A program made the translations under genes and the position numbers. The notes beneath the pieces are model-generated. The model saw nothing but the letters and a program-made list of their open reading frames with translations. It searched no databases and was not told the DNA's origin. A stretch of 64,000 nt of DNA from Clostridia bacterium (lineage in GTDB: Bacteria > Bacillota > Clostridia > Christensenellales > CAG-917), in NCBI GenBank assembly GCA_017461985.1, contig JAFTSA010000001.1:301-64300 (forward strand), written 5' to 3'. This document shows positions 1-23,609 of the stretch, piece after piece. Positions within the stretch are counted from its first letter, which is position 1; every line of letters starts with the position of its first letter.

Positions 1-1530
1 GTTTTCAAGGATAACGAAGCGAATTATTATTACGGCGGCGAAAGATTTTGGTCTGATCAGTTAAGCGGCGGTGCTATCGGATGCGACGACGGCTCAAAGC
101 TTACCGTCCGTAATTGCCAAATTATCGGCAACAAGGCAGGGGTTGGCGGAGGTATCGGCGTAAGTATATCAAACGCGGATATCGAGGACTGCTATATAAC
201 CGAAAACAAGGCGATCCCCGAAACCGAGGATAAGCGAAGCGCATTTGGACTTGCAAGCAACCAAGGTCTTGGGGGCGCGATTTATCTCAACGGCGCAACG
301 AGCGTCACGATAGGTAATACCGAAATTCGCCATAATTATGCCGAAAACGCCATGAGCGCGATCTTCACAGACTATAATCCTTCCCTTGATTACAGCACTC
401 GCTCGGTGGATTTATTGTTCTGCACGATAGCGGAAAACACCTGTAAAACGGCAATGTCCGATTGTACCGGCTACGGCGAGGATAAATGGCTATGGTTTTC
501 GTGGTATCCCGACTTCTTTGATATAAGTTATCTCAACTACTACGGAAATTTGGTGGTTGATGAGCTATATGAAACCCACAACCCGAAAAACGAACAACCC
601 ACCGAGGAAAACGGATACAACTTTTTCGGCAGCGCAGCTCCTGCACAGTGGTACAACGAGGAAGGACATCTCGTACACGCCCCTACGGTTTCCACCGATT
701 TCATCAAGGAAAAGCTTGGTGACAGAAACTATTACGGCACGTTTACGGTAGGCGCAAACAACCACGAGGTAACCTTCAGGTTCTTTATGGACGGTGTTTG
801 CAAGGAAACCGTTGTTCTTCCTTCCGGCGTGAATCCTACGAGCCCTGCCTTTGAAAAGGTCGGCTATACGCTCACCGCTTGGACGCTTACCGAGGATTTT
901 GAGTATCAGGTAGACCGTTCCTTCATCGTCGGTAACAAGACGGAAAGCGTGGACTTTCACGCAGTATTCACCCCGAATACGTACACAGTTACCTATCACT
1001 TTGGCGAGGCGACGCAAGAAGTGGAGCAAACGTATGATACCAAACTTGTACCGCCTACACCACAAGAAAGAAGCGGATATAGATTTATCGGTTGGTTTAC
1101 CCAAGAAAATGGAAAGGGGGATAAGCTTGTGGTTGGTAGCAATTACGAGACGGCAAGCGATATTACCTTCTACGCATATTATGAGAAGGAATTTCCCGAA
1201 TTCTATGTTATAATTTCTGTTGTGGGCACTGTGCTTATTATAAGCGTTGCTGTTTTGGCTGGATTTGCGATTTATAGAAGAAAGCATCCGCACATGGTAC
1301 CTGCAACCGACTCTGGAGTACCGCTTCCCGAAGAAAAAGTATTACCTGATACGAGTATGCTTTCGCAACGTGAGAAGGAAGTGTTGGATTTGCTTTTACA
1401 AGGCAAGCAAAGAAATGAAATTGCGACAACCTTGTATATTAGCGAAAACACGGTAAAGAAAAATATTTCGAGCATTTACACGAAGCTTAACGTTTCGTCA
1501 AGGAACGAACTATTTGCTCTTTTCAAGTAA
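1..1530 (+). CDS. Membrane-tethered LuxR/GerE-type regulator with a large extracytoplasmic beta-helix and Flg_new-like repeat region (5-prime end outside window)
   Basis: Frame 1 is open from nt 1 (VFKDNEANYYYGGERFW..LSGGAIGCDDGSKLTVRNCQIIGNKAGVGGGIGV..LGGAIYLNG) into the tracked ORF 352..1530. Repeats GYTLTAWTLTEDF and GYRFIGWFTQENGKG are present. A single hydrophobic span FYVIISVVGTVLIISVAVLAGFAIY is followed by RRKH. The C-terminal HTH is LSQREKEVLDLLLQGKQRNEIATTLYISENTVKKNISSIYTKLNV. Confidence 0.8.
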   Translation, partial: VFKDNEANYYYGGERFWSDQLSGGAIGCDDGSKLTVRNCQIIGNKAGVGGGIGVSISNADIEDCYITENKAIPETEDKRSAFGLASNQGLGGAIYLNGATSVTIGNTEIRHNYAENAMSAIFTDYNPSLDYSTRSVDLLFCTIAENTCKTAMSDCTGYGEDKWLWFSWYPDFFDISYLNYYGNLVVDELYETHNPKNEQPTEENGYNFFGSAAPAQWYNEEGHLVHAPTVSTDFIKEKLGDRNYYGTFTVGANNHEVTFRFFMDGVCKETVVLPSGVNPTSPAFEKVGYTLTAWTLTEDFEYQVDRSFIVGNKTESVDFHAVFTPNTYTVTYHFGEATQEVEQTYDTKLVPPTPQERSGYRFIGWFTQENGKGDKLVVGSNYETASDITFYAYYEKEFPEFYVIISVVGTVLIISVAVLAGFAIYRRKHPHMVPATDSGVPLPEEKVLPDTSMLSQREKEVLDLLLQGKQRNEIATTLYISENTVKKNISSIYTKLNVSSRNELFALFK

Positions 1531-1555
1531 AACTGAATAACTAAAAGCGAGAAAA

Positions 1556-1584
1556 GTCCGATTTTATCAATCGGGCTTTTTTTT
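1556..1584 (+). terminator. Rho-independent terminator after the LuxR-type gene
   Basis: 8-bp stem gtccgatt / aatcgggc with a 5-nt loop, followed by T8. Confidence 0.75.
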
Positions 1585-1614
1585 GCGCGTAAAATTGTTA
1601 AAAAACTGCAGGTA

Positions 1615-1712
1615 TACCCGTTTGGGTAGGGTATTTTGGTCAAAAAGTACCCGTTTTTACCCGAAAAGTACCCGAACGGGTAATATGCTACCCATAGAGT
1701 CTCGAGTATAAT
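1615..1712 (+). promoter_or_regulatory. Array of TACCCG half-sites (two palindromes plus direct copies) ending at a TATAAT -10 box
   Basis: TACCCG at 1615, 1648, 1658 and 1669, and TACCCA at 1689. Inverted GGGTA at 1624 and 1629, and CGGGTA at 1677. Palindromes TACCCGTTTGGGTA (1615-1628) and TACCCGAACGGGTA (1669-1682). TATAAT at 1707-1712 with a poor -35 (tatgct). Confidence 0.6.
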
Positions 1713-1777: not shown

Positions 1778-2101
1778 ATGCTAAAAACAATAACAAAAAA
1801 AATCATAGATAGGTCTACGGATGAGTTTTTCAAATTTGAATTTCATTGCGATAGATGCGGAGCTGGATGGGAGAGTGATACGTATTGTTTCGAGCACGGA
1901 TTTCCCGAAAAGCTTACCGAAGGTGAACAAAGAGCAAAAAATATTATGTGGAAAGTTGAGCACGATGCGGCGTTAGAGCGAGCAAATTTGGAAGCAAGGT
2001 TAAGATTCAATCAATGCAATTCCTGCGGACGAATTATTTGCGACGAATGTTTTGCGATGGATGAAGACGAGGACTTATGTATTGATTGTGCAAAACAATA
2101 A
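1778..2101 (+). CDS. Small cysteine-rich zinc-ribbon-like protein, function unknown
   Basis: ATG at 1778 lies 7 nt after GGAGGGG. CxxC pairs: CDRC, CNSC, CDEC, CIDC. The tracked ORF start at 1730 lacks an RBS. Confidence 0.65.
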   Translation: MLKTITKKIIDRSTDEFFKFEFHCDRCGAGWESDTYCFEHGFPEKLTEGEQRAKNIMWKVEHDAALERANLEARLRFNQCNSCGRIICDECFAMDEDEDLCIDCAKQ

Positions 2102-2207
2102 AACATTTTGACTTTTAATTACGGAGTTAGAAAAGAACAATACAATGAAAGAATAAAAGAACCTTAACCCCCACCACAAATTTTAATTTATTATGGAGGA
2201 AACCTAA

Positions 2208-4109
2208 ATGAAAAAGAAAATAACATTATTTATAGCAATGATTATGGCACTGACGATGGCATTTTCACTCGCCGCTTGTAATGATAACACGGGTGGTGGC
2301 GGAGGACTTCCGCCTACACTTGAACAAGTGGTAGAAAAAGTGCAGGATATGCCGGTATCGACTGAAGAAAATGCGATAGAAAACGCAATTGGCGAAGTGT
2401 TTGGTGTAGACCTTAACCTTCCCGAAGGAAGTTATAACGCGCAAGTTTATACGGTAGGCAACGTGAGTGCATACGTTGTTACCGTTTCGGGGGCAAATAC
2501 AACGGCGACTGATTATTATAACAGCATAAAAGCAGAAATGCTTGCAAAAGGTTATATCGCAGAAGATTCCGAACTTGCGTTCTATAAGGTAGCAGGAACT
2601 GTGGTTTATTCGGTAAGCGTTGAAGCCGACGGGAACGACGTCATTATTTCAATGGGCGCAGCTTCACCTACCGCAACGCCCGGTGGCGAAACACCTGGTG
2701 GAACGACTCCGGGAGGGCAGACAGGGGGAGGAACTACCACGTGGCCCGCAAGTCAGATTCAAAGCATACTTGGATATGCACTCCCTCAATATACGGGACA
2801 AGCGGAAAGCTTCGTTGTAACGCCTTATACGGAGGGCGGAGTTGTCGGCGTGAGTGTTACCATAACTGGCGCAAACGCTGATGATATTGAGGCGTATATC
2901 GGCAACGTTGGCGTTTTTCGTGATAACGGATATTCAAGCGCAGGCAGTAACGTTTGGGTTAAAAGGTTGGACAACGGAGACAATCTTGTTATTCCTACGT
3001 ATACGCAAGGTGATTACGATGAAAACTTTAGACCGACAACCTTGTTTTTTATAGCGTATATCGAATCTAATACGGGTATTTATTCAAGTTGGCCGAGTAC
3101 GGATATTACCGCTAGTTTTGCGAGCGCAGGAGTACCTTCGTATGAAGGTGGAACGTCTTATGACTTTTCAGATACGGCAAGCAGTTACAACGATTTTGCC
3201 GACACATACGAATCTATCATTCAAGCGTATCAGATTGCGCAACAATACGGCGTTGTAGACGCTGAATTGGAGGCCCAGTATCAAGAAGCACTTGAACTTA
3301 TAGAGGAAGCAGAAAAGGTCCGTTCTAGCAGAATTACCGTTTACGGAACAAACGAAACCGAAAGACAGGCGTATATAACTAAAATTTTGGCATCGCCCGA
3401 TAGAAATAACGAAGAGAATTTTGTGTTGACAGGTAGTGACGAGTATTCAAGGCTTTATACATACTACACGACGGAGTATAAAATCAGCATAACTTTAAGC
3501 GACGTGGAAGACGGCAAATTGTATATCGATTTGTTGAGAGTTCCCACCTCGCTTTTAGAGGACGACGATTTACCTGTTGCGGCAAGTGCTTATACTCTGC
3601 CTCAAAATGTTAAAATAGTTTATGACGACGGTATTTATCAGTACGTAGCGTATAAAATCGGCGATGATTATTACGTAGGTAAACAATATCTTCCCGATTC
3701 TGACCTAGGACAATATTCATCAGGGATGATCGAACAGAAGTACTATAAGAAAAACGGCAACGTTTGGGATGTGTACACAATGGATATAGGCGATAGCGAT
3801 TGGGTTAAAGATACCGATTGGCAGGAAAACGATAGAACTTATCTTGAAGAAGATGTCTTTGATTTTATCGTTTGTATAGACGACGTTGAAGAAGCGGTGG
3901 AAATTGGAACGCAAACGGTTGCGGGTAAGAATTGTACCATTTACGAATTAGATACTGGCTATTATAGATCTGTTTATTACGTAGACGAAGAAAGCAATTT
4001 AATATATAAGTCGGAATTTTATTATGATACGTCGCTGGGTATGGCTTACGAAATAACGGAATTTATTACCGCAGTGACTTCGTTTGAGGACGTTGAATTA
4101 CCGCAATAA
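2208..4109 (+). CDS. Lipoprotein of unknown function (633 aa)
   Basis: GGAGG RBS. Signal peptide with lipobox FSLAAC. Gly/Thr/Pro linker PTATPGGETPGGTTPGGQTGGGTTTW. No recognisable catalytic motif. Confidence 0.75.
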   Translation: MKKKITLFIAMIMALTMAFSLAACNDNTGGGGGLPPTLEQVVEKVQDMPVSTEENAIENAIGEVFGVDLNLPEGSYNAQVYTVGNVSAYVVTVSGANTTATDYYNSIKAEMLAKGYIAEDSELAFYKVAGTVVYSVSVEADGNDVIISMGAASPTATPGGETPGGTTPGGQTGGGTTTWPASQIQSILGYALPQYTGQAESFVVTPYTEGGVVGVSVTITGANADDIEAYIGNVGVFRDNGYSSAGSNVWVKRLDNGDNLVIPTYTQGDYDENFRPTTLFFIAYIESNTGIYSSWPSTDITASFASAGVPSYEGGTSYDFSDTASSYNDFADTYESIIQAYQIAQQYGVVDAELEAQYQEALELIEEAEKVRSSRITVYGTNETERQAYITKILASPDRNNEENFVLTGSDEYSRLYTYYTTEYKISITLSDVEDGKLYIDLLRVPTSLLEDDDLPVAASAYTLPQNVKIVYDDGIYQYVAYKIGDDYYVGKQYLPDSDLGQYSSGMIEQKYYKKNGNVWDVYTMDIGDSDWVKDTDWQENDRTYLEEDVFDFIVCIDDVEEAVEIGTQTVAGKNCTIYELDTGYYRSVYYVDEESNLIYKSEFYYDTSLGMAYEITEFITAVTSFEDVELPQ

Positions 4110-4146
4110 AGAAAAAACAAAAATAAACGGAAAGGAGAAAACGACT

Positions 4147-5007
4147 ATGGCGAACAAACTTAGAAATAATTTGACTTATGTGTTTTGTGCAGGATTGGGG
4201 CTTTTGAACTTTATATTTTTGGCGTTTAATTACATAGCGTCGTTTGCGGAATACAGTTATGGAGGATACGGCAATTATTCGCAATCCTACGGCGTGAGCG
4301 GATATAAAGTTATGGATTTGTGGGAACTCAAATTCAGTGGAGTGATGAGTTCTATTATACAGATCTTCATTCTGTTGCTTGGCATTGCTTTGCTTGTTTG
4401 GGGCGTGCTGGGGCTTTTGAAGGCCTTTGGCGTTTTTGAAAAGTTCCCCGATAAGATTGGTAAATTAGAATCGAAGAAACTGGGTGAATTTGGACTTTTC
4501 GGTTTAGCAGGCCTTAACGTATTGCTCCTTATTTTCCTTATTATCTTAACGGCAACCAACACCGAAAAGAGTGAATACGGCTCGGCAGGTATCAAATTTT
4601 CCGCAGGTATCTTCATTGCACTTATCTTTACCGTAGGCTCAGTGGTTGCACTCAAAGTTTTGGGAAAGAAACTTCCTGCAACCGACGAAGGCGGAGAAAC
4701 CGTAACCTACGTTTGCGGAAAATGTGGCAAGAAAGCGAAAGCAAAGGATAAGTTCTGCAACGAATGCGGCGGCGAAATTGAAAAGAAAGTTGTGGTAAAA
4801 GAAGAATACGCTTGTGAAAAGTGTGGCAAAAAAGCGACAGCAAAGGATAAGTTCTGCAACGAATGCGGCGGAGCTGTCGTAGTAAAGAAAGAAGAACCAA
4901 AAGAAGAACCAAAAGAAGAAACGGCAACGATTGAAGACGTTGTTCCACAAGAAGAACCAAAAGAAGAAGAAACTGCAACGATTGAAGACGTTGTTCCACA
5001 AGAATAA
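4147..5007 (+). CDS. Polytopic membrane protein with two tandem C-terminal zinc ribbons and an acidic repeat tail
   Basis: ATG 4147 after AAGGAG. About 4 hydrophobic spans. The module CGKCGKKAKAKDKFCNECGG is duplicated as CEKCGKKATAKDKFCNECGG. The tail repeat is EEPKEE(E)TATIEDVVPQE x2. Confidence 0.7.
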   Translation: MANKLRNNLTYVFCAGLGLLNFIFLAFNYIASFAEYSYGGYGNYSQSYGVSGYKVMDLWELKFSGVMSSIIQIFILLLGIALLVWGVLGLLKAFGVFEKFPDKIGKLESKKLGEFGLFGLAGLNVLLLIFLIILTATNTEKSEYGSAGIKFSAGIFIALIFTVGSVVALKVLGKKLPATDEGGETVTYVCGKCGKKAKAKDKFCNECGGEIEKKVVVKEEYACEKCGKKATAKDKFCNECGGAVVVKKEEPKEEPKEETATIEDVVPQEEPKEEETATIEDVVPQE

Positions 5008-5106
5008 CTTAATCGGGGGGATAGAAAACTTTATCCCCCTAACGTACTGTAAAGCAAAGGATAACCAAAAGATTAAAAAGAAAAATAGAAAATGGAGGTA
5101 AAACCT

Positions 5107-8100
5107 ATGAAGAAGTTTTTCTCAATCATCCTTTTAGTGCTGATGGTGTGTTCGTTCACGTTGACAGCGTGTAATAACACCGATACGCCGCATACCTGTG
5201 AAAGCGTATGTCCCGTTTGTGGAAACTGTATGGACGAAGATTGCACGGATTCGGCTTGTAGCAACAAGTGTCAGGGGCATACTCCTGCACCCGGAACGCA
5301 TACCTGTGAAAGCGTATGTCCTATTTGTGGAAACTGTATGGACGAAACGTGTACAGAAGCCGAATGTGAAGAAAAGTGCGCAGGGCACGAGCAATCGGAA
5401 ATGGCAGCGGCGCAGTTCGTTGCAAACACGGCTAACTATTTGACGGACGCAAACGAAGGTATTTCGGCGGCAGCGGCGGCTCTCGGCGGAAGTATTGAAC
5501 TTTCGTATGAAGAACCTTTCTTCCCGATGGAAATCCCGATGTCGGCAAGTGCGGCCGCCAGTTCAAGCGGTGTAAAATCACTGTCGGCAAGAAAGTATAA
5601 CGTAGGCAATTCCATCGATCTTCTTTCGGACGCGGAGGATGAAAAGGAAGAAGAAATGATGCTGTGCGCAAAATGCGGACAAGTAGAAGTTCCCGTTTCC
5701 CAAAAGTATTGCGACGCTTGCAAAGCAGCAATGGGCGGACAAACTGCTCCTAAGAATTATTCTACGGGAAGTGCTATGGAGCAATACATAATTTTCAACT
5801 CGGTAGCGAGAAAGATTCAACTTATCGTTGGCGCAACCGAGTACTATACGGAATACGATTTCCCGTTCCCGAACGAAAATGAACTTGCTCTTATCGGCAC
5901 GATTAAGTTTGAAGGCGAATTCACCAAACTTCTCAAAGAAATCGAAGATTATGAGTTAAGTGCAGACGGGTTCTACGTTATCGAAGAACCTTACTACCAA
6001 GACGGCACGTTTAATCCAGATACGGGCGAAATTGACAAAGAGTTAGGCGGACAAACGCTTATCTACAAGAAAGTACGTGGGTTTAAGCTTGAGGGCAACA
6101 CGCTCATCACTTCGTCGTATACAATTTCTTATCAATATATGGACAACAACGAAGAATTGATAAGCGAAGAAGTATACGTAGAATATACGATGGACGGCAA
6201 CAACTTCTATTATGAAAAGTACAAAATGGTAGACGGTCAAAAAGTCGTTGTCGATATGTTCGATATCATTAAAGAGGAGCCTGACGAAAATTCAGTGGGC
6301 GACGTGTATTACGTGCAAATGACCCTGAGCCAAGCAGAAATTACGGGCGTTCCCGCCGTGTACTTTGAAGAAGCGATGGATATCGCAGAGCAATGGGACA
6401 AATATGTAAACGAAAAAATGGGCACGGGATACCATGCCGAAGTTCCTACCAAGGTTTACTTAAACGGTAAAATCCACAAGATAGACCGAGACGTAATGTA
6501 CGAAATGTACTACTTCCGCGACTACGACTATGCGGCGGCAGGCTACGAAAGCTCTTGCTACGTTTATCCAATCGAAAATTGGGAAGAATTCTATGGGGAA
6601 TATTTCTATGAATATACGCGTGGAAATTCCGCACCGTTGCCCGAAAGCTGGAAAAACGGCTTCGATACCAACTTGGGCGCAAACCTTGAAGGTATGATTG
6701 AAGATTCGTTGTACGGTAAGTATGCGGAAACTCTTGTGTATAGAGCAAGCGGAAACGTTCAAATGCCAGAGGAAGGGGCAAAATATTATCCGTTCCAACT
6801 TAAAGAATCCAGCGCAACGTTAGATATCAACGATTCTTATGAAATCATTGCAAGTTCTGCGGACGACGCTGTTTGGAGCGTGAGTTCGTCCAATGAAGAA
6901 GTTGCAACCGTGAGCGGTTTAACCGTTCAAGCGGGCAGCATGGAAGGCGAAGCGATTATTACCGTGCAACGTAATAATCTCGTTAGATATTTCTACGTGC
7001 TCGTTCGCAACAGACTCGTGACCGACAATCCCGAAGAAATGACTATCCGTTTAGGAACTACGGGGCACGCATTTTTCAATGCGTATAGCAATCAAAACGA
7101 CGTGATTGTATTCTCGTCCGATAACGAAGAAATCGTTACCATCGACGAAACGGGGTGGATTACCGCGCATAAGGAAGGCGCAACGGCGGTTTGGGCGGCT
7201 ACGCAAGACGGTGAAAGATTTGAAAAGATGTTCGTTCGCGTAGTCGGCAGTGCGGATATCGTATCGTTTTATCAACCGAACGAAGGCAGCGAGGACGTAA
7301 TTTCAACGTTGCACCTTTTGGGACTGGGCAAGATTTCCGTTACTTACGATACGGTTTTGAGCTTGGACACTGAATATTATTTGCTTTTCGAGGGCTTGGA
7401 CGAGGGCGGCTCGTTCTATCAAGACACTCCGATTAACGGGCTTCCGATTTATAATCTCCTCATCAACGGACGGAGTGCGGTGGAGCATCCCGACGTGACG
7501 GTTTCGCGCGTTTACGAGGAGTACCAAAACGATACGGGCGGCACCAATTCGCATTTCCTCAATAATTACCGCAGCGTAACCTTCCATACGGCGGGAACGT
7601 ACAAGTTTGAATTTTGGTATCAACACCAAGGCGGTGAATTTGTCGAAAGAGATACCAATCAATCCTCTTATTCCAATGGCATTCCCATGAAGAACGTCGT
7701 GATTTTGGAAATCAACGTGACGGTTGGCACTCCGTATCCGTACAGATACGACGCGACCACGCACACTTACTACGTTTCCGATTACGCAGGCTTGCTTGCG
7801 TGGTACGAAGCGCAACAGCTTAACAAGAGCACGAATCTCGTGCTTGAAGCGGACATCTATATGCCGACCGTCGCGTCGGAGTTCTTGTTTGACCTTGACG
7901 GGGACGGCGTAAACGAAAGCAACTGGGGGCTTGAAACGGAGCGTTATACGGGTACAATTGACGGCAACGGTAAATATATTCGAGGCTTAACAATGAATAT
8001 CGACGAGAGCGCGAATAACGGTGCGTACGTTGCTTTTGTGTCGCAGATGTTAAGCGGTGGCGTTATAAAGAACATTAATTTTGCGGACGGTCAAATAACA

Positions 8101-8733
8101 AGCCGTTATGTCAGCGGCGTCGTCGGTAGACTTGCCGGCGGTAAAGTTATCAACTGTACCAATGCGAATACCCTTGTCGCTTGGGACGTGGCATCGGGAA
8201 TCGTACTCGATATTTGGTTCAGCGGACAAATTGTTGCTTGCGTGAATTACGGCTCGATTACCTGCGAAAACGGTGACGCTTCCGGAATCGTTTGCGGCTA
8301 TTCGGTTACCGTTGGCACTTACGCTACGGTTGTCGGTTGTATAAACTACGGTAGCGTACAGGGAAATATTGCAGGTGGTATCGTACCCCGCGGTGCGAAT
8401 TGGAAGTTGTACGGCTGCGCCGATTTCGGAACGGTGACAGGAGAAACGTCGGGGAACGTGATTGCAAAACAGTCTCGGGGCGTAGGCTTGTACGGATGCG
8501 TCTATTCGTTAGACGAAGGCTTTAAGGTGTTAGAGCGATTGACAAATGAAAAAAATGCAACCGTTTCTGATATAGGCATAATAGAAGACGCGATTGAAGA
8601 ATTAAACGCGGCGATCGAGCAATGCAACGCAACGGGTGGCATAAAATGCAAGTACCGTTACGTTCTCAACACCAATCCCACGACCTCCGAAGCGTATCCT
8701 CTTATTCTTCAAGAAGTGACGGACGCACAATAG
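5107..8733 (+). CDS. Giant surface lipoprotein with duplicated Cys-rich modules, two Big_2-like Ig domains and a C-terminal GLUG-like repeat region
   Basis: GGAGG 8 nt upstream of ATG 5107. Lipobox LTACN. HTCESVCP(V/I)CGNCMDE..C..KC.GH occurs twice. Big_2-like segments: VWSVSSSNEEVATVSGLTVQA and VFSSDNEEIVTIDETGWITAHKEG. C-terminal repeats of the type GGVIKNINFADGQI..SGVVGRLAGGKVINCTN. Confidence 0.8.
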   Translation: MKKFFSIILLVLMVCSFTLTACNNTDTPHTCESVCPVCGNCMDEDCTDSACSNKCQGHTPAPGTHTCESVCPICGNCMDETCTEAECEEKCAGHEQSEMAAAQFVANTANYLTDANEGISAAAAALGGSIELSYEEPFFPMEIPMSASAAASSSGVKSLSARKYNVGNSIDLLSDAEDEKEEEMMLCAKCGQVEVPVSQKYCDACKAAMGGQTAPKNYSTGSAMEQYIIFNSVARKIQLIVGATEYYTEYDFPFPNENELALIGTIKFEGEFTKLLKEIEDYELSADGFYVIEEPYYQDGTFNPDTGEIDKELGGQTLIYKKVRGFKLEGNTLITSSYTISYQYMDNNEELISEEVYVEYTMDGNNFYYEKYKMVDGQKVVVDMFDIIKEEPDENSVGDVYYVQMTLSQAEITGVPAVYFEEAMDIAEQWDKYVNEKMGTGYHAEVPTKVYLNGKIHKIDRDVMYEMYYFRDYDYAAAGYESSCYVYPIENWEEFYGEYFYEYTRGNSAPLPESWKNGFDTNLGANLEGMIEDSLYGKYAETLVYRASGNVQMPEEGAKYYPFQLKESSATLDINDSYEIIASSADDAVWSVSSSNEEVATVSGLTVQAGSMEGEAIITVQRNNLVRYFYVLVRNRLVTDNPEEMTIRLGTTGHAFFNAYSNQNDVIVFSSDNEEIVTIDETGWITAHKEGATAVWAATQDGERFEKMFVRVVGSADIVSFYQPNEGSEDVISTLHLLGLGKISVTYDTVLSLDTEYYLLFEGLDEGGSFYQDTPINGLPIYNLLINGRSAVEHPDVTVSRVYEEYQNDTGGTNSHFLNNYRSVTFHTAGTYKFEFWYQHQGGEFVERDTNQSSYSNGIPMKNVVILEINVTVGTPYPYRYDATTHTYYVSDYAGLLAWYEAQQLNKSTNLVLEADIYMPTVASEFLFDLDGDGVNESNWGLETERYTGTIDGNGKYIRGLTMNIDESANNGAYVAFVSQMLSGGVIKNINFADGQITSRYVSGVVGRLAGGKVINCTNANTLVAWDVASGIVLDIWFSGQIVACVNYGSITCENGDASGIVCGYSVTVGTYATVVGCINYGSVQGNIAGGIVPRGANWKLYGCADFGTVTGETSGNVIAKQSRGVGLYGCVYSLDEGFKVLERLTNEKNATVSDIGIIEDAIEELNAAIEQCNATGGIKCKYRYVLNTNPTTSEAYPLILQEVTDAQ

Positions 8734-9470
8734 TAAATCTATGCAACAACAAAAAAAGCATACGAATTAGCGTAGACGCTTTGAACTAACAAAGAACGGC
8801 GGTGGGCTTCGGCTCACCGCTTGTTATGTTTAATTTGAAAAAAGTAAAACGAAAGATGTGGAAATTGATGGCACTAGCTTGATAAAAATTTAAACTCTCA
8901 AAATGAAAGTTAGGCGTGCGCTTGGATATATACAAGTAGATAATGACCGTGAACAAATAATACGTAAAGTGTCTACCGAAACACACGAAACAACTAGACT
9001 CTTTAAGGGTGGCACTGTAAAAACTAAATACTATAACTACGATATTTACGTCGTTATATAATAAAAGAGCATAACTCGCTTTTATGAATTATGCTCAATT
9101 ATCTAAACTTGTTATGCTAGTTTCAATTTCTTGCGACTAAAGCCAATTTATGTTATCTAAAATGTAAAATTTACAAAACATTACACATGGCGACAAAGAA
9201 ATATACTTTGTATATTAAAGTTGAATCGTTTAGCTCTTCGAATCTTACGCCAGGAACCGCCGAATTATTGGCGGTTTTATTTTTATGCTTTTTGGCGGTT
9301 TTTGCAGATATTAGACGCGTGGCGGTTTTTGTCTTTTTGTCTGAAATCAAAAAACAATAAAAATAAAATTGCATAAAAAAAAATCAAGCGCAAAAACGAT
9401 TTTGAAAACATATTGTGTTTGCGACCAAATTATGGTAAAATGTATGCAGAAATCAACAGGGAAGGTCATT

Positions 9471-10500
9471 ATGAGAGCAACATTGAAATTTTTGAGTGAA
9501 CAAAGTGGTTTGTCAATAGCTGCCATTTCTCTTATTCTCAATGACAAGCCTGTGCGAGTTTCGCCCGAAAAAAAGATTCTTGTCAAAAATTTGGCAAAAC
9601 AATACAACTATAAGCCAAATATGACGGCAGTTGCTTTGGTGACAAAAAAGACAAAGACGATTGGTTTGATTTTGCCAGACATAGTTAATCCGTTTTTTGC
9701 TGTTGTTGCAAGTGAAATTAATCAAAAATTTCACGAGGCAGGATACAACATTATTTTGTGCAACACCAACAACGACATCGATCTTGAGAATAAATATGCA
9801 GGTATGTTAGAAGAGAAGCAGCTTGAAGCGCTCATAATTTGTGCTTCAGACGAAAATCATCAATGCGACCTTAGTGGGTTCTATGATCAAAACATACCAG
9901 TCATTTTTTTTTGATAGATACTACGCAGATTCCAACTACATAGTGTCTATTGACAACACTGAAGGGGCGCGTCAGGCAGTCAAATATCTTATAGAAAATG
10001 GTCATCAAAACATAGCAATGATCACCGGCCCACTTAGTTATCGATCTGCAAGAACGCGTATTGATGGTTATAAGGAAGCCCTCGTAGAGGCGGGATTGCA
10101 GGTCAACGAAGACTATATCGTTGTAGGGGATTACACTTTCGACGGAGGCCAAAGGGCGGCGAAAATAATCGGCGAGTTTGATGAAGTGACTGCCGTGTTT
10201 GCAAGCAACGACCTTATGGCATACGGAGCAATGAAGGAATTTTCTGACAGCGGCAAAAATGTGCCAAATGATATTTCCATCGTCGGTTTTGACGATCTTA
10301 ATTTTTCACAAATGTTGCGCACACCCTTGACTTCTGTCAAACAAAATTTGAAAGAACTAGCAGAAAACGTTTTTGGTTTAACGATGCGCGCAATAAATGG
10401 TTACGTCGCGCCTACGCACAAGGTCGTTGCGACCAACCTGATAGAGCGTGACAGCGTAGTCAACCGAGAAAGCGTTCACAATATTTCAGCAGTTAAATAG
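9471..10500 (+). pseudogene. LacI-family transcriptional regulator interrupted by a +1 frameshift in a T9 homopolymer
   Basis: The N-terminal HTH (ATLKFLSEQSGLSIAAISLILND) and first sugar-binding lobe are in frame 3 (tracked ORF 9369..9914). The rest (DRYYADSNYIVSIDN..VGFDDLNFSQMLRTPLTSV) is in frame 1 (9841..10500). The switch is at T9, 9904-9912. Eight Ts would read PVIFFDRYY in one frame (~342 aa). Confidence 0.85.
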
Positions 10501-12191: not shown

Positions 12192-13085
12192 ATGAAAAAA
12201 ACAGCACTCTTATTGATCGTGATTTTGGCAGTTATGTGCGTCTTTGTAGCATGCGATGAGCCCAACCAACCCGATGGCCCTGCCGCACCTGGCGCAGATA
12301 TCGTGATCAACGACGTCAAAACAATGACAGCGGGAATCACCGCAGTGTATCAAAACGAGAACGGTGATTTTATTGCAACTCACCACTCAAAGTTTACGGT
12401 CATCGACGACGATTTCACCGTCAATGAACTTGTTCAACTTTTCTTTGACAAATCTTATGGCGTGACAGCGCTTGACCCCGACAGCAACGGCTCAACCGAT
12501 GAACTCTTCCTGTCCTACGGCGCATGGCCTGATATTACAGATATTTCTCTTCCTAATACAGGCGAAATGCAATGGGTTGTTCGCGACAGCGCATATCAAC
12601 TTGTTTCTGACACAACAGCATCAGTTGTCGACAATGCAGAATACTACTACAGCTACGAAAGCATCGACAACCCCGTGCCTTTCACTGCAAGCGATCTTTC
12701 AGCAGTTGCACCCGATGATGACAAGCCTTATTTCTACATAAACACAACTAGTGCAAAAACCGTAAAAATCACCATCAGCGCAGAAAAATCTGATAAGTCA
12801 ATTGCAACGTTGTTCAGTGGAACAGTTCAAATCACCGATGACGATTTGACAGTTGAAGAAGTCATCAAGAAAGTCTGCGACGAGAGAGGTATTCTTTACA
12901 GCATAAGCGGTGGATTCATCAACTCAATCGGCGAGTACGCAAACGACTTTGGTTCAGCATATGCATGGTGGTCAAGCGGATTTATGGTCAACGGAGAAGA
13001 ATATGTCAACTATGCAGGAGTCAACGAAGTGTTTGTCGGTGACGGAGCAGAGATTTACGTAAATTACAGATACGGCACATTCTAA
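12192..13085 (+). CDS. Lipoprotein with a DUF4430-like (transcobalamin-beta-like) C-terminal domain
   Basis: GGAGG RBS. Lipobox VFVACDE. The C-terminus LTVEEVIKKVCDERGILYSISGGFINSIGEY..WWSSGFMVNGEEYVNYAGVNEVFVGDGAEIYVNYRY fits the DUF4430 pattern as I recall it. Confidence 0.6.
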   Translation: MKKTALLLIVILAVMCVFVACDEPNQPDGPAAPGADIVINDVKTMTAGITAVYQNENGDFIATHHSKFTVIDDDFTVNELVQLFFDKSYGVTALDPDSNGSTDELFLSYGAWPDITDISLPNTGEMQWVVRDSAYQLVSDTTASVVDNAEYYYSYESIDNPVPFTASDLSAVAPDDDKPYFYINTTSAKTVKITISAEKSDKSIATLFSGTVQITDDDLTVEEVIKKVCDERGILYSISGGFINSIGEYANDFGSAYAWWSSGFMVNGEEYVNYAGVNEVFVGDGAEIYVNYRYGTF

Positions 13086-21184: not shown

Positions 21185-21209
21185 TTTATTATCGCGAAAG
21201 CGAAATACA

Positions 21210-21308
21210 ACATATCCGATCTTGCTCACCTAAGGCGTGCTGGGCTATGGAGTGCAAGGCGTTAGGGTATGGCGGGAAACGGCCATGCCTCCCATTGTGG
21301 AAAGGAGA
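21210..21308 (+). promoter_or_regulatory. Probable Moco/Tuco (molybdenum/tungsten cofactor) riboswitch
   Basis: The ~120-nt leader contains TCCGA, GGGAAACGG, GCCTCCC (21287-21293) and GGAAAGGAG (21299-21307, also the RBS). These resemble the conserved blocks of the Moco RNA motif as I recall it. It sits upstream of a tungstate/molybdate transporter. Confidence 0.55.
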
Positions 21309-21311
21309 ACT

Positions 21312-22253
21312 ATGAAAAAATTTACAGCTTTTGCACTGGTGCTTTTGCTGGTGCTTTCACTCGTCACGTTTGTGGCTTGCGATCCCGAAACCCCCGACAC
21401 CCCCGATGCACCCAAAGTGGTGAGAATCTCCACAACAACCTCTGTCAACGACAGTGGTCTTATGGCATATCTCCAACCTTACTTTGAAGCACAAACCGGC
21501 TATAAGTGGGAGATTTCCTCAGCAGGCACAGGCGCAGCAATCAACTCTGCAAAATACGGCAACGCAGACGTCATTCTTGTCCACAGCAAGTCACAAGAAG
21601 AAGCATTTGTTTCAGCAGGATTTGGCAGAAAAGTTGAAGGATACGATGCAGAAAGAGTGTCCTTTATGTACAACTACTTTGTTCTTGTAGGACCCACCGC
21701 AGACCCCGCAGGTGCAAGTGATGCAGAAGGTGTCAAGGCAGCATTCAGCGCAATCGCAACCGGCGAACACACCTTTATCTCCCGTGGTGACAAGAGTGGT
21801 ACACACACCGCAGAATTGAAACTTTGGGACGCATCTCTCGGCCTCACCAACGACCCCGCAACAAGCGCAACCTATACTTGGTACGTTTCAGCAGGTCAAG
21901 GTATGGGCGCATGCCTCACCATGGCAAACGAACAAGGTGGCTACTGCCTCACCGACAAAGCAACGTTCCTCTCATACAAGAATCACGCAGACGGTGACAA
22001 ACTCCCCGGCCTTTCAATCCTCTTTGAACAAGACGATGCAATGAAGAACACCTACTCAATGATTGCAGTCAACCCCGACGCACCTTTTGTTGACTCAGTC
22101 ACAGGGGAAGCACTTCCTGCAGGCACTGTCACCATTGACACCACCGCAGCAGACGTCTTCATCAACTGGATGAATAGCGAAACCGCACGCACTCTCATTG
22201 CACAATACGGCATTGAACAATACGGAGCATCCCTCTTTACAGTCATTGAATAA
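21312..22253 (+). CDS. tupA: Tungstate-type ABC substrate-binding lipoprotein
   Basis: AAAGGAG RBS. Lipobox TFVACD. ISTTTSVNDSGL (TTTS motif) and SRGDKSGTH. Confidence 0.8.
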   Translation: MKKFTAFALVLLLVLSLVTFVACDPETPDTPDAPKVVRISTTTSVNDSGLMAYLQPYFEAQTGYKWEISSAGTGAAINSAKYGNADVILVHSKSQEEAFVSAGFGRKVEGYDAERVSFMYNYFVLVGPTADPAGASDAEGVKAAFSAIATGEHTFISRGDKSGTHTAELKLWDASLGLTNDPATSATYTWYVSAGQGMGACLTMANEQGGYCLTDKATFLSYKNHADGDKLPGLSILFEQDDAMKNTYSMIAVNPDAPFVDSVTGEALPAGTVTIDTTAADVFINWMNSETARTLIAQYGIEQYGASLFTVIE

Positions 22254-22945
22254 TGAACGCATTTGAAAAAGCATGGGTCTTGGTGACAAGCCAAGACCCT
22301 ATGCTTCAAAACATCGTAAAGACCACCCTTGAAATGGCATTTTCAAGCTCGGCGATAGCACTTCTTTTAGGAGTGCTAATTGGGCTTGTTGTGGCATACA
22401 ACGATTTCCCCGGCAAGAAGATTGTAGTGGTGATTATGCGCACCCTGATGGGCTTGCCCCCTGTGGTTGTTGGCATAGTGGTGTATATTCTGTTTTCAGG
22501 CACAGGCCCCTTTGGACACTTGAAACTGATATACTCGGTGGACCTTATGATAATTGCGCAGGTGGTGCTCATCACACCTATTGTTGCAGGAATGACTGAA
22601 ACCTCACTTAGCCCCCTCGTTGACAGAATGCGCCCTACACTTAAGGGCCTCAACTTGTCCTTGCCAAAGAAAACCGCGCTGGTGCTTTTTGAAGGCAAAT
22701 ATCAACTGATTGCAGTGTATCTGTTTGCTTTTGCAAGGGCAATATCCGAAGTTGGAGCAATCCAAATCGTGGGTGGAAACATACTGAACAAAACCCGTAC
22801 AATGACCACAGCCATAGCCCTCAACTACAACACGGGTGACTTTTCGTTGGCAGTGGCGCTGGGCATAATTCTCCTTGCCATAGCCCTTGGCGTAAACTTG
22901 GTGGCAGGACTTTTGCAAATAGGATTGAAGAAGAGAAATGATTGA
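22253..22945 (+). CDS. tupB: Tungstate ABC transporter permease
   Basis: The start overlaps the tupA stop. 230-aa polytopic protein. Confidence 0.8.
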   Translation: MNAFEKAWVLVTSQDPMLQNIVKTTLEMAFSSSAIALLLGVLIGLVVAYNDFPGKKIVVVIMRTLMGLPPVVVGIVVYILFSGTGPFGHLKLIYSVDLMIIAQVVLITPIVAGMTETSLSPLVDRMRPTLKGLNLSLPKKTALVLFEGKYQLIAVYLFAFARAISEVGAIQIVGGNILNKTRTMTTAIALNYNTGDFSLAVALGIILLAIALGVNLVAGLLQIGLKKRND

Positions 22946-23609
22946 GATTACCGCACGAAAAAAATATGGTGACAGAGTTGTGCTTGACATTGACAAACTG
23001 CGCTTTGAAAAGGGCAGGGTTTACGCACTTATCGGCACAAACGGATCTGGCAAATCCACTCTTCTGCAAGCCCTTGCAAAGGTGATAGACTTCAAGGGTG
23101 ACGTGAAGGGATTGACCGGAAAGGACGTTGCATATATGCCTCAAAAGAGTTTTGCATTTTCAACCTCTGTGCTTGCAAACGTCACTGCACCTTGCCCCAT
23201 ACACCGCATTTTCACAGAGAGAGCAAAGGCAAAGCGACTGCTCAAATCCCTTGCCCTTGACCACCTTTCAAAGAAGAACGCATCACGTCTTTCGGGGGGT
23301 GAAACACAACGTGTTGCCCTTGCCAGAATGCTTGTTGCACCCCACGACTTTTTGCTCCTTGACGAGCCCTCCGCCTCTCTGGACGTGGAGTCAACCCTCA
23401 TCAGCGAGGAGGTGCTTATGGACTATCTTGAAAGGACAGGCTGCACCCTCATCTTTGCCACACACTCAATTGCACAAGCCAAACGACTGGCAGATGAAGT
23501 TATTGTGCTTGACGGCGGAAAGGTTGTTGAAAGAGGGTTCACAGACCAAGTGCTAGAAAACCCCGAAAACGACAAAACAAGGAGTTTTCTTGAACAATTC
23601 AACAGATAA
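22938..23609 (+). CDS. tupC: Tungstate ABC transporter ATP-binding protein
   Basis: GTNGSGKST, LSGGETQR and LLLDEP motifs. Confidence 0.8.
   Translation: MIEITARKKYGDRVVLDIDKLRFEKGRVYALIGTNGSGKSTLLQALAKVIDFKGDVKGLTGKDVAYMPQKSFAFSTSVLANVTAPCPIHRIFTERAKAKRLLKSLALDHLSKKNASRLSGGETQRVALARMLVAPHDFLLLDEPSASLDVESTLISEEVLMDYLERTGCTLIFATHSIAQAKRLADEVIVLDGGKVVERGFTDQVLENPENDKTRSFLEQFNR

Follow-up and report, generated by a model that had tools for sequence, protein, structure and literature searches.

The first 1530 nucleotides of a 64,000-nucleotide stretch of DNA (hereafter the window) from a Clostridia bacterium (GenBank assembly GCA_017461985.1, contig JAFTSA010000001.1, positions 301 to 64,300 of the forward strand) encode the C-terminal part of a protein, referred to here as the regulator, in which an adhesin-like ectodomain, one transmembrane helix and a complete GerE/LuxR-type helix-turn-helix (HTH) are joined in a single reading frame. 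The interpretation favoured here, with moderate confidence, is that the regulator would serve as a transmembrane one-component activator of the adjacent operon at 1778-8733, with its membrane-tethered HTH acting on an array of short repeats under the control of the ectodomain. An earlier note on the same DNA had already proposed a membrane-bound transcription factor at this place and had regarded its architecture as unusual.

Architecture and distribution of the regulator

The reading frame at 1-1530 of the plus strand (frame 1) comprises 509 codons with no internal stop, ends with TAA at 1528-1530 and begins beyond the left edge of the window; the fragment thus represents the 3' 1530 nt of the gene, with the first ~283 codons lying to the left. 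Its full length (100% coverage) aligns at 98% identity with the database homologue P0001 (792 residues), the residue numbers of which equal those of the fragment plus 283. The parts that the earlier note had listed, namely beta-helix repeats, Flg_new, a transmembrane helix with RRKH and a complete GerE HTH, were all recovered by Pfam and hydropathy where it had placed them, and are given below with their support, including the predicted local distance difference test (pLDDT) of an AlphaFold (AF2) model.

1-561 (+): C-terminal turns of an extracellular, right-handed beta-helix with GGAI/GGGI repeats (Pfam Beta_helix, faint Chlam_PMP; AF2 of P0001, pLDDT >90)
562-768 (+): linker domain from the beta-helix to the B-repeats (AF2 residues 471-539 of P0001; family mean pairwise identity 0.56)
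769-1191 (+): two Listeria-Bacteroides (InlB B-repeat, Flg_new) domains (Pfam Flg_new; Foldseek, InlB 2y5p)
1201-1275 (+): single transmembrane helix FYVIISVVGTVLIISVAVLAGFAIY (Kyte-Doolittle 2.7; AF2 helix 683-705)
1276-1356 (+): positive-inside RRKH and a poorly conserved, disordered cytoplasmic linker (pLDDT <50 at P0001 707-729; family identity 0.27)
1357-1515 (+): complete GerE/LuxR-type HTH domain (PF00196; sequence match to 1fse; superposition on 1je8)

Of the profiles named for checking in the earlier note, GerE (PF00196) matched residues 453-505 of the fragment with E=4.4e-16 and 58.7 bits (cut-off 23.5) over profile positions 2-54 of 57, and Flg_new (PF09479) matched residues 328-392 with E=1.5e-12, both above threshold; the Beta_helix match at residues 23-124 (E=2e-4) fell under its cut-off and that of Chlam_PMP was faint (E=0.18). 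The GGAI/GGGI motifs are legible in the translation as LSGGAIG, GVGGGIG and GLGGAIY. The sole hydrophobic segment of the fragment, at residues 401-425, reaches a Kyte-Doolittle maximum of 2.7 over 19 residues and is directly followed by RRKH, just as the earlier note had described, and the full-length homologues checked add only a signal peptide, each showing exactly two hydrophobic segments by hydropathy; P0001 itself starts with the signal-peptide-like MVRKHKLTIQILLGLFSLMLFCAILINSNSVSAQA, and the one exception, P0045, begins past its signal peptide and shows the transmembrane helix alone. With a complete protein of ~790 residues and an ectodomain of ~645, the description of the latter as "giant" could not be upheld, the giant relatives being devoid of an HTH.

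In the AlphaFold model of P0001, built from 36 homologues (pLDDT 85.7), a right-handed beta-helix occupies ~40-470 and is followed by the linker domain. Two B-repeat domains rich in beta structure come next, at 540-680; the transmembrane helix spans 683-705, the tether at 707-729 is disordered, and the HTH at 739-791 is formed by four helices ( 739-749, 754-761, 765-778 and 784-791). Against the PDB, Foldseek matched the beta-helix to the AlgG epimerase, PL6 alginate lyases, pectate lyase and phage tailspikes, and the B-repeats to the InlB B-repeat 2y5p (root-mean-square deviation (rmsd) 1.7, 72 columns, 30% identity), while the HTH superposed on the NarL-DNA complex 1je8 (rmsd 0.9 over 57) and on LiaR (rmsd 0.8), with GerE and DegU also matched; B. 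subtilis GerE 1fse (E=4.9e-10) is the solved protein nearest in sequence to the tail. Pfam gave no HisKA, HATPase or Response_reg match in the regulator and no anti-sigma domain in the fragment, and no Y_Y_Y match was obtained from Pfam, the model or Foldseek in the ectodomain, which is made up of beta-helix and Flg_new. The C-terminus bears the transmembrane helix and HTH in place of a wall or outer-membrane anchor (LPXTG, GW or autotransporter barrel). By these predictions, the regulator is a type-I single-pass membrane protein with its sensor outside and its HTH inside, and it unites at least one transmembrane region and a DNA-binding domain in one polypeptide, which is the definition of a transmembrane transcription regulator (Demey et al. 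2023; PMC10269533). We infer that sensing takes place through the ectodomain.

Searching the database gave 74 full-length relatives with identities between 98% and 30%, all of 685-836 residues except P0057 (620 residues); their precomputed domains comprise PMP/Beta_helix and GerE, plus Flg_new in all except the most distant, P0074. A genome scan with one genome per species yielded 73 loci, nearly all in metagenome-assembled genomes (MAGs) of uncultured gut Clostridia/Eubacteriales from goat, sheep, deer and other sources, including Ca. Scatosoma, Ca. Stercoripulliclostridium, Christensenellaceae and Acutalibacteraceae among named lineages; a few, at 33-36% identity, came from Erysipelotrichaceae and Bacilli MAGs, and Flavobacteriia loci aligned to residues ~693-791 alone. 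Many MAG contigs break inside or beside the regulator gene, as would be expected if near-identical promoter or spacer segments disrupt assembly. A family-profile search over 1.84 billion representatives (50%-identity clusters) was also made, and among the best 150 matches examined, 43 were proteins of 540-860 residues with a signal peptide, a beta-helix, one transmembrane helix and a C-terminal HTH, many of them without B-repeats. The other 107 were repeat proteins of 930-6,800 residues, mostly >1,500, without an HTH, and the modules of the regulator seem to have been borrowed from giant adhesins among them.

Since the architecture recurs in more than 70 independent assemblies and in these 43 representatives, the fusion is genuine and not an assembly or frameshift artefact, an eventuality that the earlier note had named as refuting. 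The family contains one beta-helix and zero to two B-repeats, and the gap from the transmembrane helix to the HTH measures 17-60 residues in 37 of 38 newly found HTH-bearing relatives and 109 in the remaining one. Mean pairwise identity is highest in the HTH (0.64), followed by the ectodomain (0.47-0.58) and the transmembrane helix (0.31), and lowest in the tether (0.27).

The proposed operator array and competing readings

The spacer behind the regulator gene contains the following elements, in order:

1552-1585 (+): intrinsic terminator of the regulator gene (stem 1552-1563/1569-1580, 12 nt, 92% complementary; loop of 5; T run)
1612-1695 (strandless): predicted operator array of eight half-sites (from repeat reading; conserved downstream of homologues to 35% protein identity)
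1615, 1648, 1658, 1669 (+): TACCCG half-sites
1677-1682: inverted half-site CGGGTA
1624-1628 and 1629-1633: inverted half-sites GGGTA
1689-1694: half-site TACCCA
1615-1628 and 1669-1682: palindromes TACCCGTTTGGGTA and TACCCGAACGGGTA, respectively
1707-1712 (+): -10 hexamer TATAAT of the downstream operon (read from the sequence)

The dense operator-like array that the earlier note had drawn attention to is borne out, as five of the ten TACCCG hexamers of the whole window fall within the 68 bp at 1615-1682, a clustering with a chance of ~1e-12 by our own Poisson arithmetic, and three direct TACCCG repeats are spaced 10-11 bp apart. Palindrome TACCCGAACGGGTA resembles the engineered high-affinity 7-2-7 site of NarL, TACCCCTAAAGGGGTA (PMC4549865), the TACCC...GGGTA core being common to both. 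The spacers of homologues are built alike: most classes begin with a terminator, an element that class-A homologues conserve, and a repeated half-site cluster and then TATAAT follow. The distance from the proximal site to TATAAT is 19-24 nt in most array-bearing homologues and 36 nt in a class-A subgroup that has one half-site more; the promoter-proximal layout of classes B and C is two direct half-sites followed by one inverted. Equivalents of the array are present in the class A-C homologues, which make up ~45 of the ~57 loci with a readable downstream spacer. In the L016 group, an operator palindrome with a T run stands where most classes have the terminator: loci L016-L021, L031, L036 and others carry GTACCTACCGC-N11-GCGGTAGGTAC and then a T run ~30-70 nt past the regulator stop. 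This palindrome could double as terminator of the regulator gene and operator of the next promoter, given that a T run follows it.

The half-site changes along with the recognition helix of the HTH across homologues, as set out below by helix, half-site and loci.

SENT[VI]KK[NQ]I[ST]S: TACCCG; 24 loci, among them L046 and L077 (at 35-42% protein identity), where T(C/T)ACCCGAACGGGTAATAT is retained
TVKD[NY]AGR: TACCTACC; L011, L014, the L016 group, L055, L076
TTVKD[YF]YRK: CC(C)TACC; L062, L078, L087
TVNTVKEYTRK: TACCCCCC; L008-L010

TACCCG, ACCTAC and ACCCCCC do not occur as an array in the spacers of one another's classes, where only single copies at chance level were found. The covariation makes the HTH the likely binder of the array, which, judged from these spacer comparisons, is likely to behave as the regulator's own operator. 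A metagenome scan started from distant members added 13 loci, of which L078 and L087 extended the covariation, and the most distant members in it had differing or unclear repeats downstream. The varying helix positions are those that follow the invariant TVK lysine; in the NarL-DNA structure this lysine would be K188 and the varying positions would correspond to V189 to H193, and the invariant part of the helix would presumably pair with the common TACC core. Paralogues of differing operator classes may share a MAG, as do L008 (class C) and L025 (class A) in JAZNNG and L010 (class C) and L066 (class B) in JAZPZM; two or three paralogous cassettes per MAG were also seen with L009/L022, L024/L042/L056 and others.

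The promoter looks activator-dependent because it has no -35 hexamer, the position (1684-1689) reading TATGCT with a 2/6 match to TTGACA, and because a consensus scan of the region gave no sigma-70 promoter on the plus strand. The array overlaps the position of the absent -35, and the proximal palindrome is centred ~43-44 bp ahead of the likely transcription start, predicted near 1719. In the proposed mechanism, tethered HTH dimers would bind the array cooperatively and replace the missing -35 contact in a class-II-type activation of the operon, while the ectodomain would control the occupancy of the array from outside. Its ligand would most likely be polymeric (a glycan or another cell surface), and binding would alter the oligomeric state of the protein. 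With the regulator gene within ~200 bp of its target and the target products secreted or membrane-bound, the DNA would be held at the membrane. For its part, the output domain of NarL, when isolated, is able to activate with a 7-2-7 site placed at -40 to -49 (PMC4549865).

Several observations weigh against this proposal. Activation is a direction that we infer from promoter geometry only, and a half-site overlaps the -10 in L004, L034 and L052 (CGGGTATAAT), which is compatible with repression. Because each recognition-helix class is a phylogenetic clade as well, the covariation amounts to about four independent contrasts. No comparable array was found in the short downstream spacer of the most distant loci (L059, L063, L068 and L080-L086), and the array region of the window is favourable as an RNA fold (z=-3.1 against shuffles). 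Pfam revealed no recognisable enzyme or transporter in the window operon that would hint at a ligand, and the databases hold no functional name for the family, all six clusters being unnamed and one partial member being labelled "InlB B-repeat-containing protein".

The possibility that the HTH becomes active only after regulated proteolysis, whereby ligand binding or shedding of the ectodomain would trigger intramembrane cleavage and a soluble fragment of ~85 residues, made up of tail and HTH, would activate the operon, should be given consideration as an unlikely but serious alternative, which the earlier note had already raised. Disorder and weak conservation mark the tether next to the membrane, and binding needs no more than a bare GerE-type output domain, which at some promoters is also enough for activation (PMC4549865). 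However, no protease gene is conserved near the regulator in the neighbourhoods of L001, L002, L076 and L077, the strict adjacency of regulator and target in all array loci is needed by a tethered factor and not by a soluble one, and characterised transmembrane regulators are reported to work from the membrane (PMC10269533). It is rather improbable, too, that the tethered HTH is a repressor which occludes the promoter until the ectodomain is engaged. Half-sites do occupy the -35 region, besides those overlapping the -10 in the homologues just mentioned, and NarL represses frdA through sites near the start site (PMC4549865), but a promoter without a -35 hexamer should be weak unaided, the palindrome centre at ~-43/-44 is a class-II activator position, and the precedents BguR and SusR, considered below, are activators.

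Far less probable is the proposition that the array is not the regulator's operator at all, and is bound instead by the product of a 72-residue Xre/HTH_3 gene upstream or acts as an RNA or terminator element. The stop of the xre gene overlaps the start codon of the regulator in 32 loci, Xre diverges between classes (47% identity), and parts of the array region score terminator-like in addition to folding better than shuffles. Nevertheless, Xre is an unlikely binder, since arrays occur in loci without xre (the L016 group, L076, L077 and L062) and the xre promoter has its own palindrome, ATATGACATAT, and no TACCCG, and the half-sites match NarL heptamers. An RNA element is countered by the position of the array upstream of the -10, by unpaired direct repeats as conserved as the paired ones, by orientation patterns that vary between classes and by the lack of any Rfam match in the spacer or array; a known RNA element was accordingly rejected, the fold being explained by palindromic protein sites. 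Scarcely credible is a surface adhesin with a relic HTH, or a fusion created by assembly or frameshift: the ectodomain modules are indeed those of giant adhesins, and P0206 and P0232 have a beta-helix and a transmembrane helix without an HTH, but the number of independent assemblies with the fusion speaks against it, as does an HTH that is the best-conserved domain and covaries with the adjacent DNA motif. The membrane-tethered activator remains the preferred reading.

Predicted target operon, upstream gene and neighbouring features

The predicted target operon spans 1778-8733 on the plus strand:

1778-2101 (+): first operon gene, a 107-residue cytoplasmic protein with eight conserved cysteines (four CxxC); ribosome-binding site AGGAGG at 1764-1769
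2208-4109 (+): 633-residue lipoprotein, lipobox LAAC (open reading frame; no Pfam family)
4147-5007 (+): multi-pass membrane protein with a C-terminal double zinc ribbon (Pfam DZR, E=5.8e-8)
5092-8733 (+): last operon gene, a 1213-residue lipoprotein with a Big_2 domain (Pfam, E=4e-7)
8798-8821 (+): hairpin, the probable operon end (10-pair stem, 7 GC pairs; terminator scan)

The eight-cysteine protein lies directly downstream in 39 loci of all classes by tblastn (the L001 copy at 12625-12948) and was found only directly behind the regulators' arrays; it has a central helix HDAAFERANLEARLRFN and just 27 database homologues, with no Pfam domain besides one PF14445 match and in many cases on contigs equal in length to regulator-bearing ones. 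The window copy has no Pfam family, and its model (pLDDT 90) found no fold match in the PDB at E<0.6. As the first product of the induced operon, it may feed back on the HTH tail. Partial relatives of the 633-residue lipoprotein occur downstream in ~20 loci, and a 49%-identical relative of the 1213-residue lipoprotein directly follows the array in L002. DZR proteins, which are also downstream in L001, L076 and L077, recur together with lipoproteins, the large surface proteins differ between loci, and the most distant regulators have a lipoprotein gene directly downstream. The end of the DZR membrane protein (4900-5007, +) contains a tandem duplication, KEEPKEE(T)ATIEDVVPQE, while the 1213-residue lipoprotein has a duplicated cysteine-rich module (HTCESVCPxCGNCMDExCT...) at its N-terminus and a glycine-rich repeat region, beta-helix-like in look, at its C-terminus. 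In the window, L001, L002, L076 and L077, the target genes contain no SusC/D or carbohydrate-active enzyme (CAZyme) domains, and no sigma gene adjoins the regulator or lies in its operon; the nearest sigma-type gene is a Sigma70_r4 gene in a prophage-like block of L001, ~5 kb upstream on the opposite strand.

The xre gene, left of the window edge, has the following coordinates in two of its loci:

L001, 9799-10017: xre gene
L002, 9799-10020: xre gene

Its promoter reads TTGATT-17-TATAAT in both, with TTGAC(A/G) variants elsewhere; the conserved palindrome is borne at the start site, and the DNA beyond about -80 varies between loci. Xre is probably an autoregulator of the operon that it forms with the regulator gene. 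Control of this operon by the GerE protein itself was discounted, the class motifs being absent from the xre promoter. The prophage-like block at L001 1-9500 (a Peptidase_S24 repressor, the Sigma70_r4 protein and a serine recombinase at 7282-8793) abuts the cassette, and two direct repeats of ~290 bp with a tRNA T-arm-like GTTCGAATC on the minus strand come after it. This adjacency seems incidental, because no family member was found among 2.9 million viral contigs; with unrelated flanks at the other loci as well, phage cargo was dismissed as an explanation.

A bolder construction, offered tentatively and judged improbable as a whole, would see in these genes a self-contained signalling system without a described counterpart in Gram-positives, in which an Xre autoregulator is combined with a tethered GerE regulator, whose adhesin-like beta-helix reads contact with a polymeric or cell-surface ligand, and with the eight-cysteine protein as a dedicated zinc-ribbon component that feeds back on the tethered HTH. 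Its operator classes, at least four in number and coexisting in one genome, would form orthogonal paralogues, each acting strictly in cis on an envelope operon via clustering-driven cooperative binding at the membrane.

Elsewhere in the window, a molybdenum/tungsten cofactor riboswitch (RF01055) at 21203-21323 (+) scores 68 bits against a gathering score of 36 and lies upstream of an ABC transporter (PBP_like_2 binding protein, permease 22253-22945, ATPase 22938-23609). A LacI-family regulator at 9369-10500 (+) is split between two overlapping open reading frames, of which 9369-9914 contains the LacI HTH with the beginning of Peripla_BP_1 and 9841-10500 contains Peripla_BP_3, and is a frameshifted pseudogene or a sequencing error.

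To our knowledge, nearly all membrane-locked transcription factors studied are ToxR-like and from Proteobacteria. How such factors find and control their promoters is poorly understood, and the present family supplies an example from Gram-positives, in type-I orientation. Experiments that swap specificities or change the length of the tether should be straightforward, given that the regulator adjoins its target, the site is NarL-like and natural variants of helix and half-site can be read. The family also suggests orthogonal single-protein transmembrane sensors for engineering anaerobic Firmicutes, and it draws attention to a set of envelope proteins, regulated and highly variable, in gut Clostridia that are uncultured, with goat, sheep and deer among the hosts.

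Comparison with known systems

Among transmembrane transcription regulators, 56% of which are single-pass, GerE ranks third in frequency as a DNA-binding domain (4,943 proteins, 9.8%; PMC10269533). In view of this and of the precedents BguR and SusR, the unusualness claimed in the earlier note was overstated. No report of this combination of domains was found in the literature searched. The names Flg_new, Beta_helix and Chlam_PMP were not found in those supplementary tables of PMC10269533 that were examined.

The closest design is that of BguR, the beta-glucan utilisation regulator of the marine flavobacterium Formosa agariphila, described in 2026 as activating the laminarin locus, for which its authors name SusR as the sole comparable case (bioRxiv 10.64898/2026.01.10.698779). 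Both BguR and the present regulator have a signal peptide, an extracytoplasmic sensor, one transmembrane helix, a linker and a GerE domain at the C-terminus with no phosphorelay, and in both the spacer from the regulator gene to the first gene under its control contains a conserved motif; BguR activates the adjacent locus, and the same direction is proposed here. The sensors differ, however, as that of BguR is a tandem beta-propeller with Y_Y_Y and that of the regulator a beta-helix with InlB B-repeats. Their settings differ as well: BguR belongs to Bacteroidota and a SusC/D polysaccharide utilisation locus with known CAZymes, whereas the regulator is found in Clostridia and Bacilli with lipoproteins and zinc-ribbon proteins. 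The two are compared here by description, and any detectable sequence similarity would at most reside in the HTH.

SusR of Bacteroides is likewise a membrane protein that exposes its sensor to the outside and keeps its C-terminal DNA-binding domain within the cell; it activates operons in its neighbourhood and has paralogues that each possess their own motif, as the regulator paralogues do (PMC3878776). A LuxR-type assignment of SusR was rejected, as its DNA-binding domain is described in the same source as resembling no other family; the sites predicted for it are direct repeats separated by 67-77 bp, and the family is stated to be restricted to Bacteroidetes (PMC3878776). SusR is therefore compared for topology only.

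The NarL/GerE output domains (1je8, 1fse) share with the regulator HTH the four-helix fold and the TACCC...GGGTA palindrome core. NarL is soluble and controlled by its receiver, whereas control of the regulator would come via the membrane tether, and the 7-2-7 site of NarL contrasts with a 6-2-6 arrangement plus direct repeats ~10-11 bp apart in the array.

ToxR, CadC and TcpP are, like the regulator, one-component proteins that sense the exterior and contact DNA from within the membrane (PMC10269533). Their orientation is the opposite one, with an N-terminal cytoplasmic winged-helix domain of the OmpR type (Trans_reg_C), a C-terminal periplasmic sensor and no signal peptide. Among Gram-positive systems, the RsgI anti-sigma factors of Clostridium thermocellum are single-pass proteins with many paralogues, each with its own extracellular polymer-binding (carbohydrate-binding) module and its own promoter specificity for envelope or secreted proteins, and RsgI uses an anti-sigma domain at its N-terminus to hold a sigma factor that is a separate protein. 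Unlike RsgI and other anti-sigma systems, the regulator contains the DNA-binding domain within the sensor protein itself and has no adjacent sigma gene.

Last, the giant Flg_new/PMP-repeat surface proteins of Firmicutes, the top non-family matches of the family profile, are made of the same modules but have 1,500-6,800 residues and carry tens of repeats and no HTH, in contrast to the regulator with its ~790 residues and HTH. Taken with the comparisons above, the regulator family is an uncharacterised, Gram-positive version, from gut Clostridia, of a design already described in Bacteroidota.

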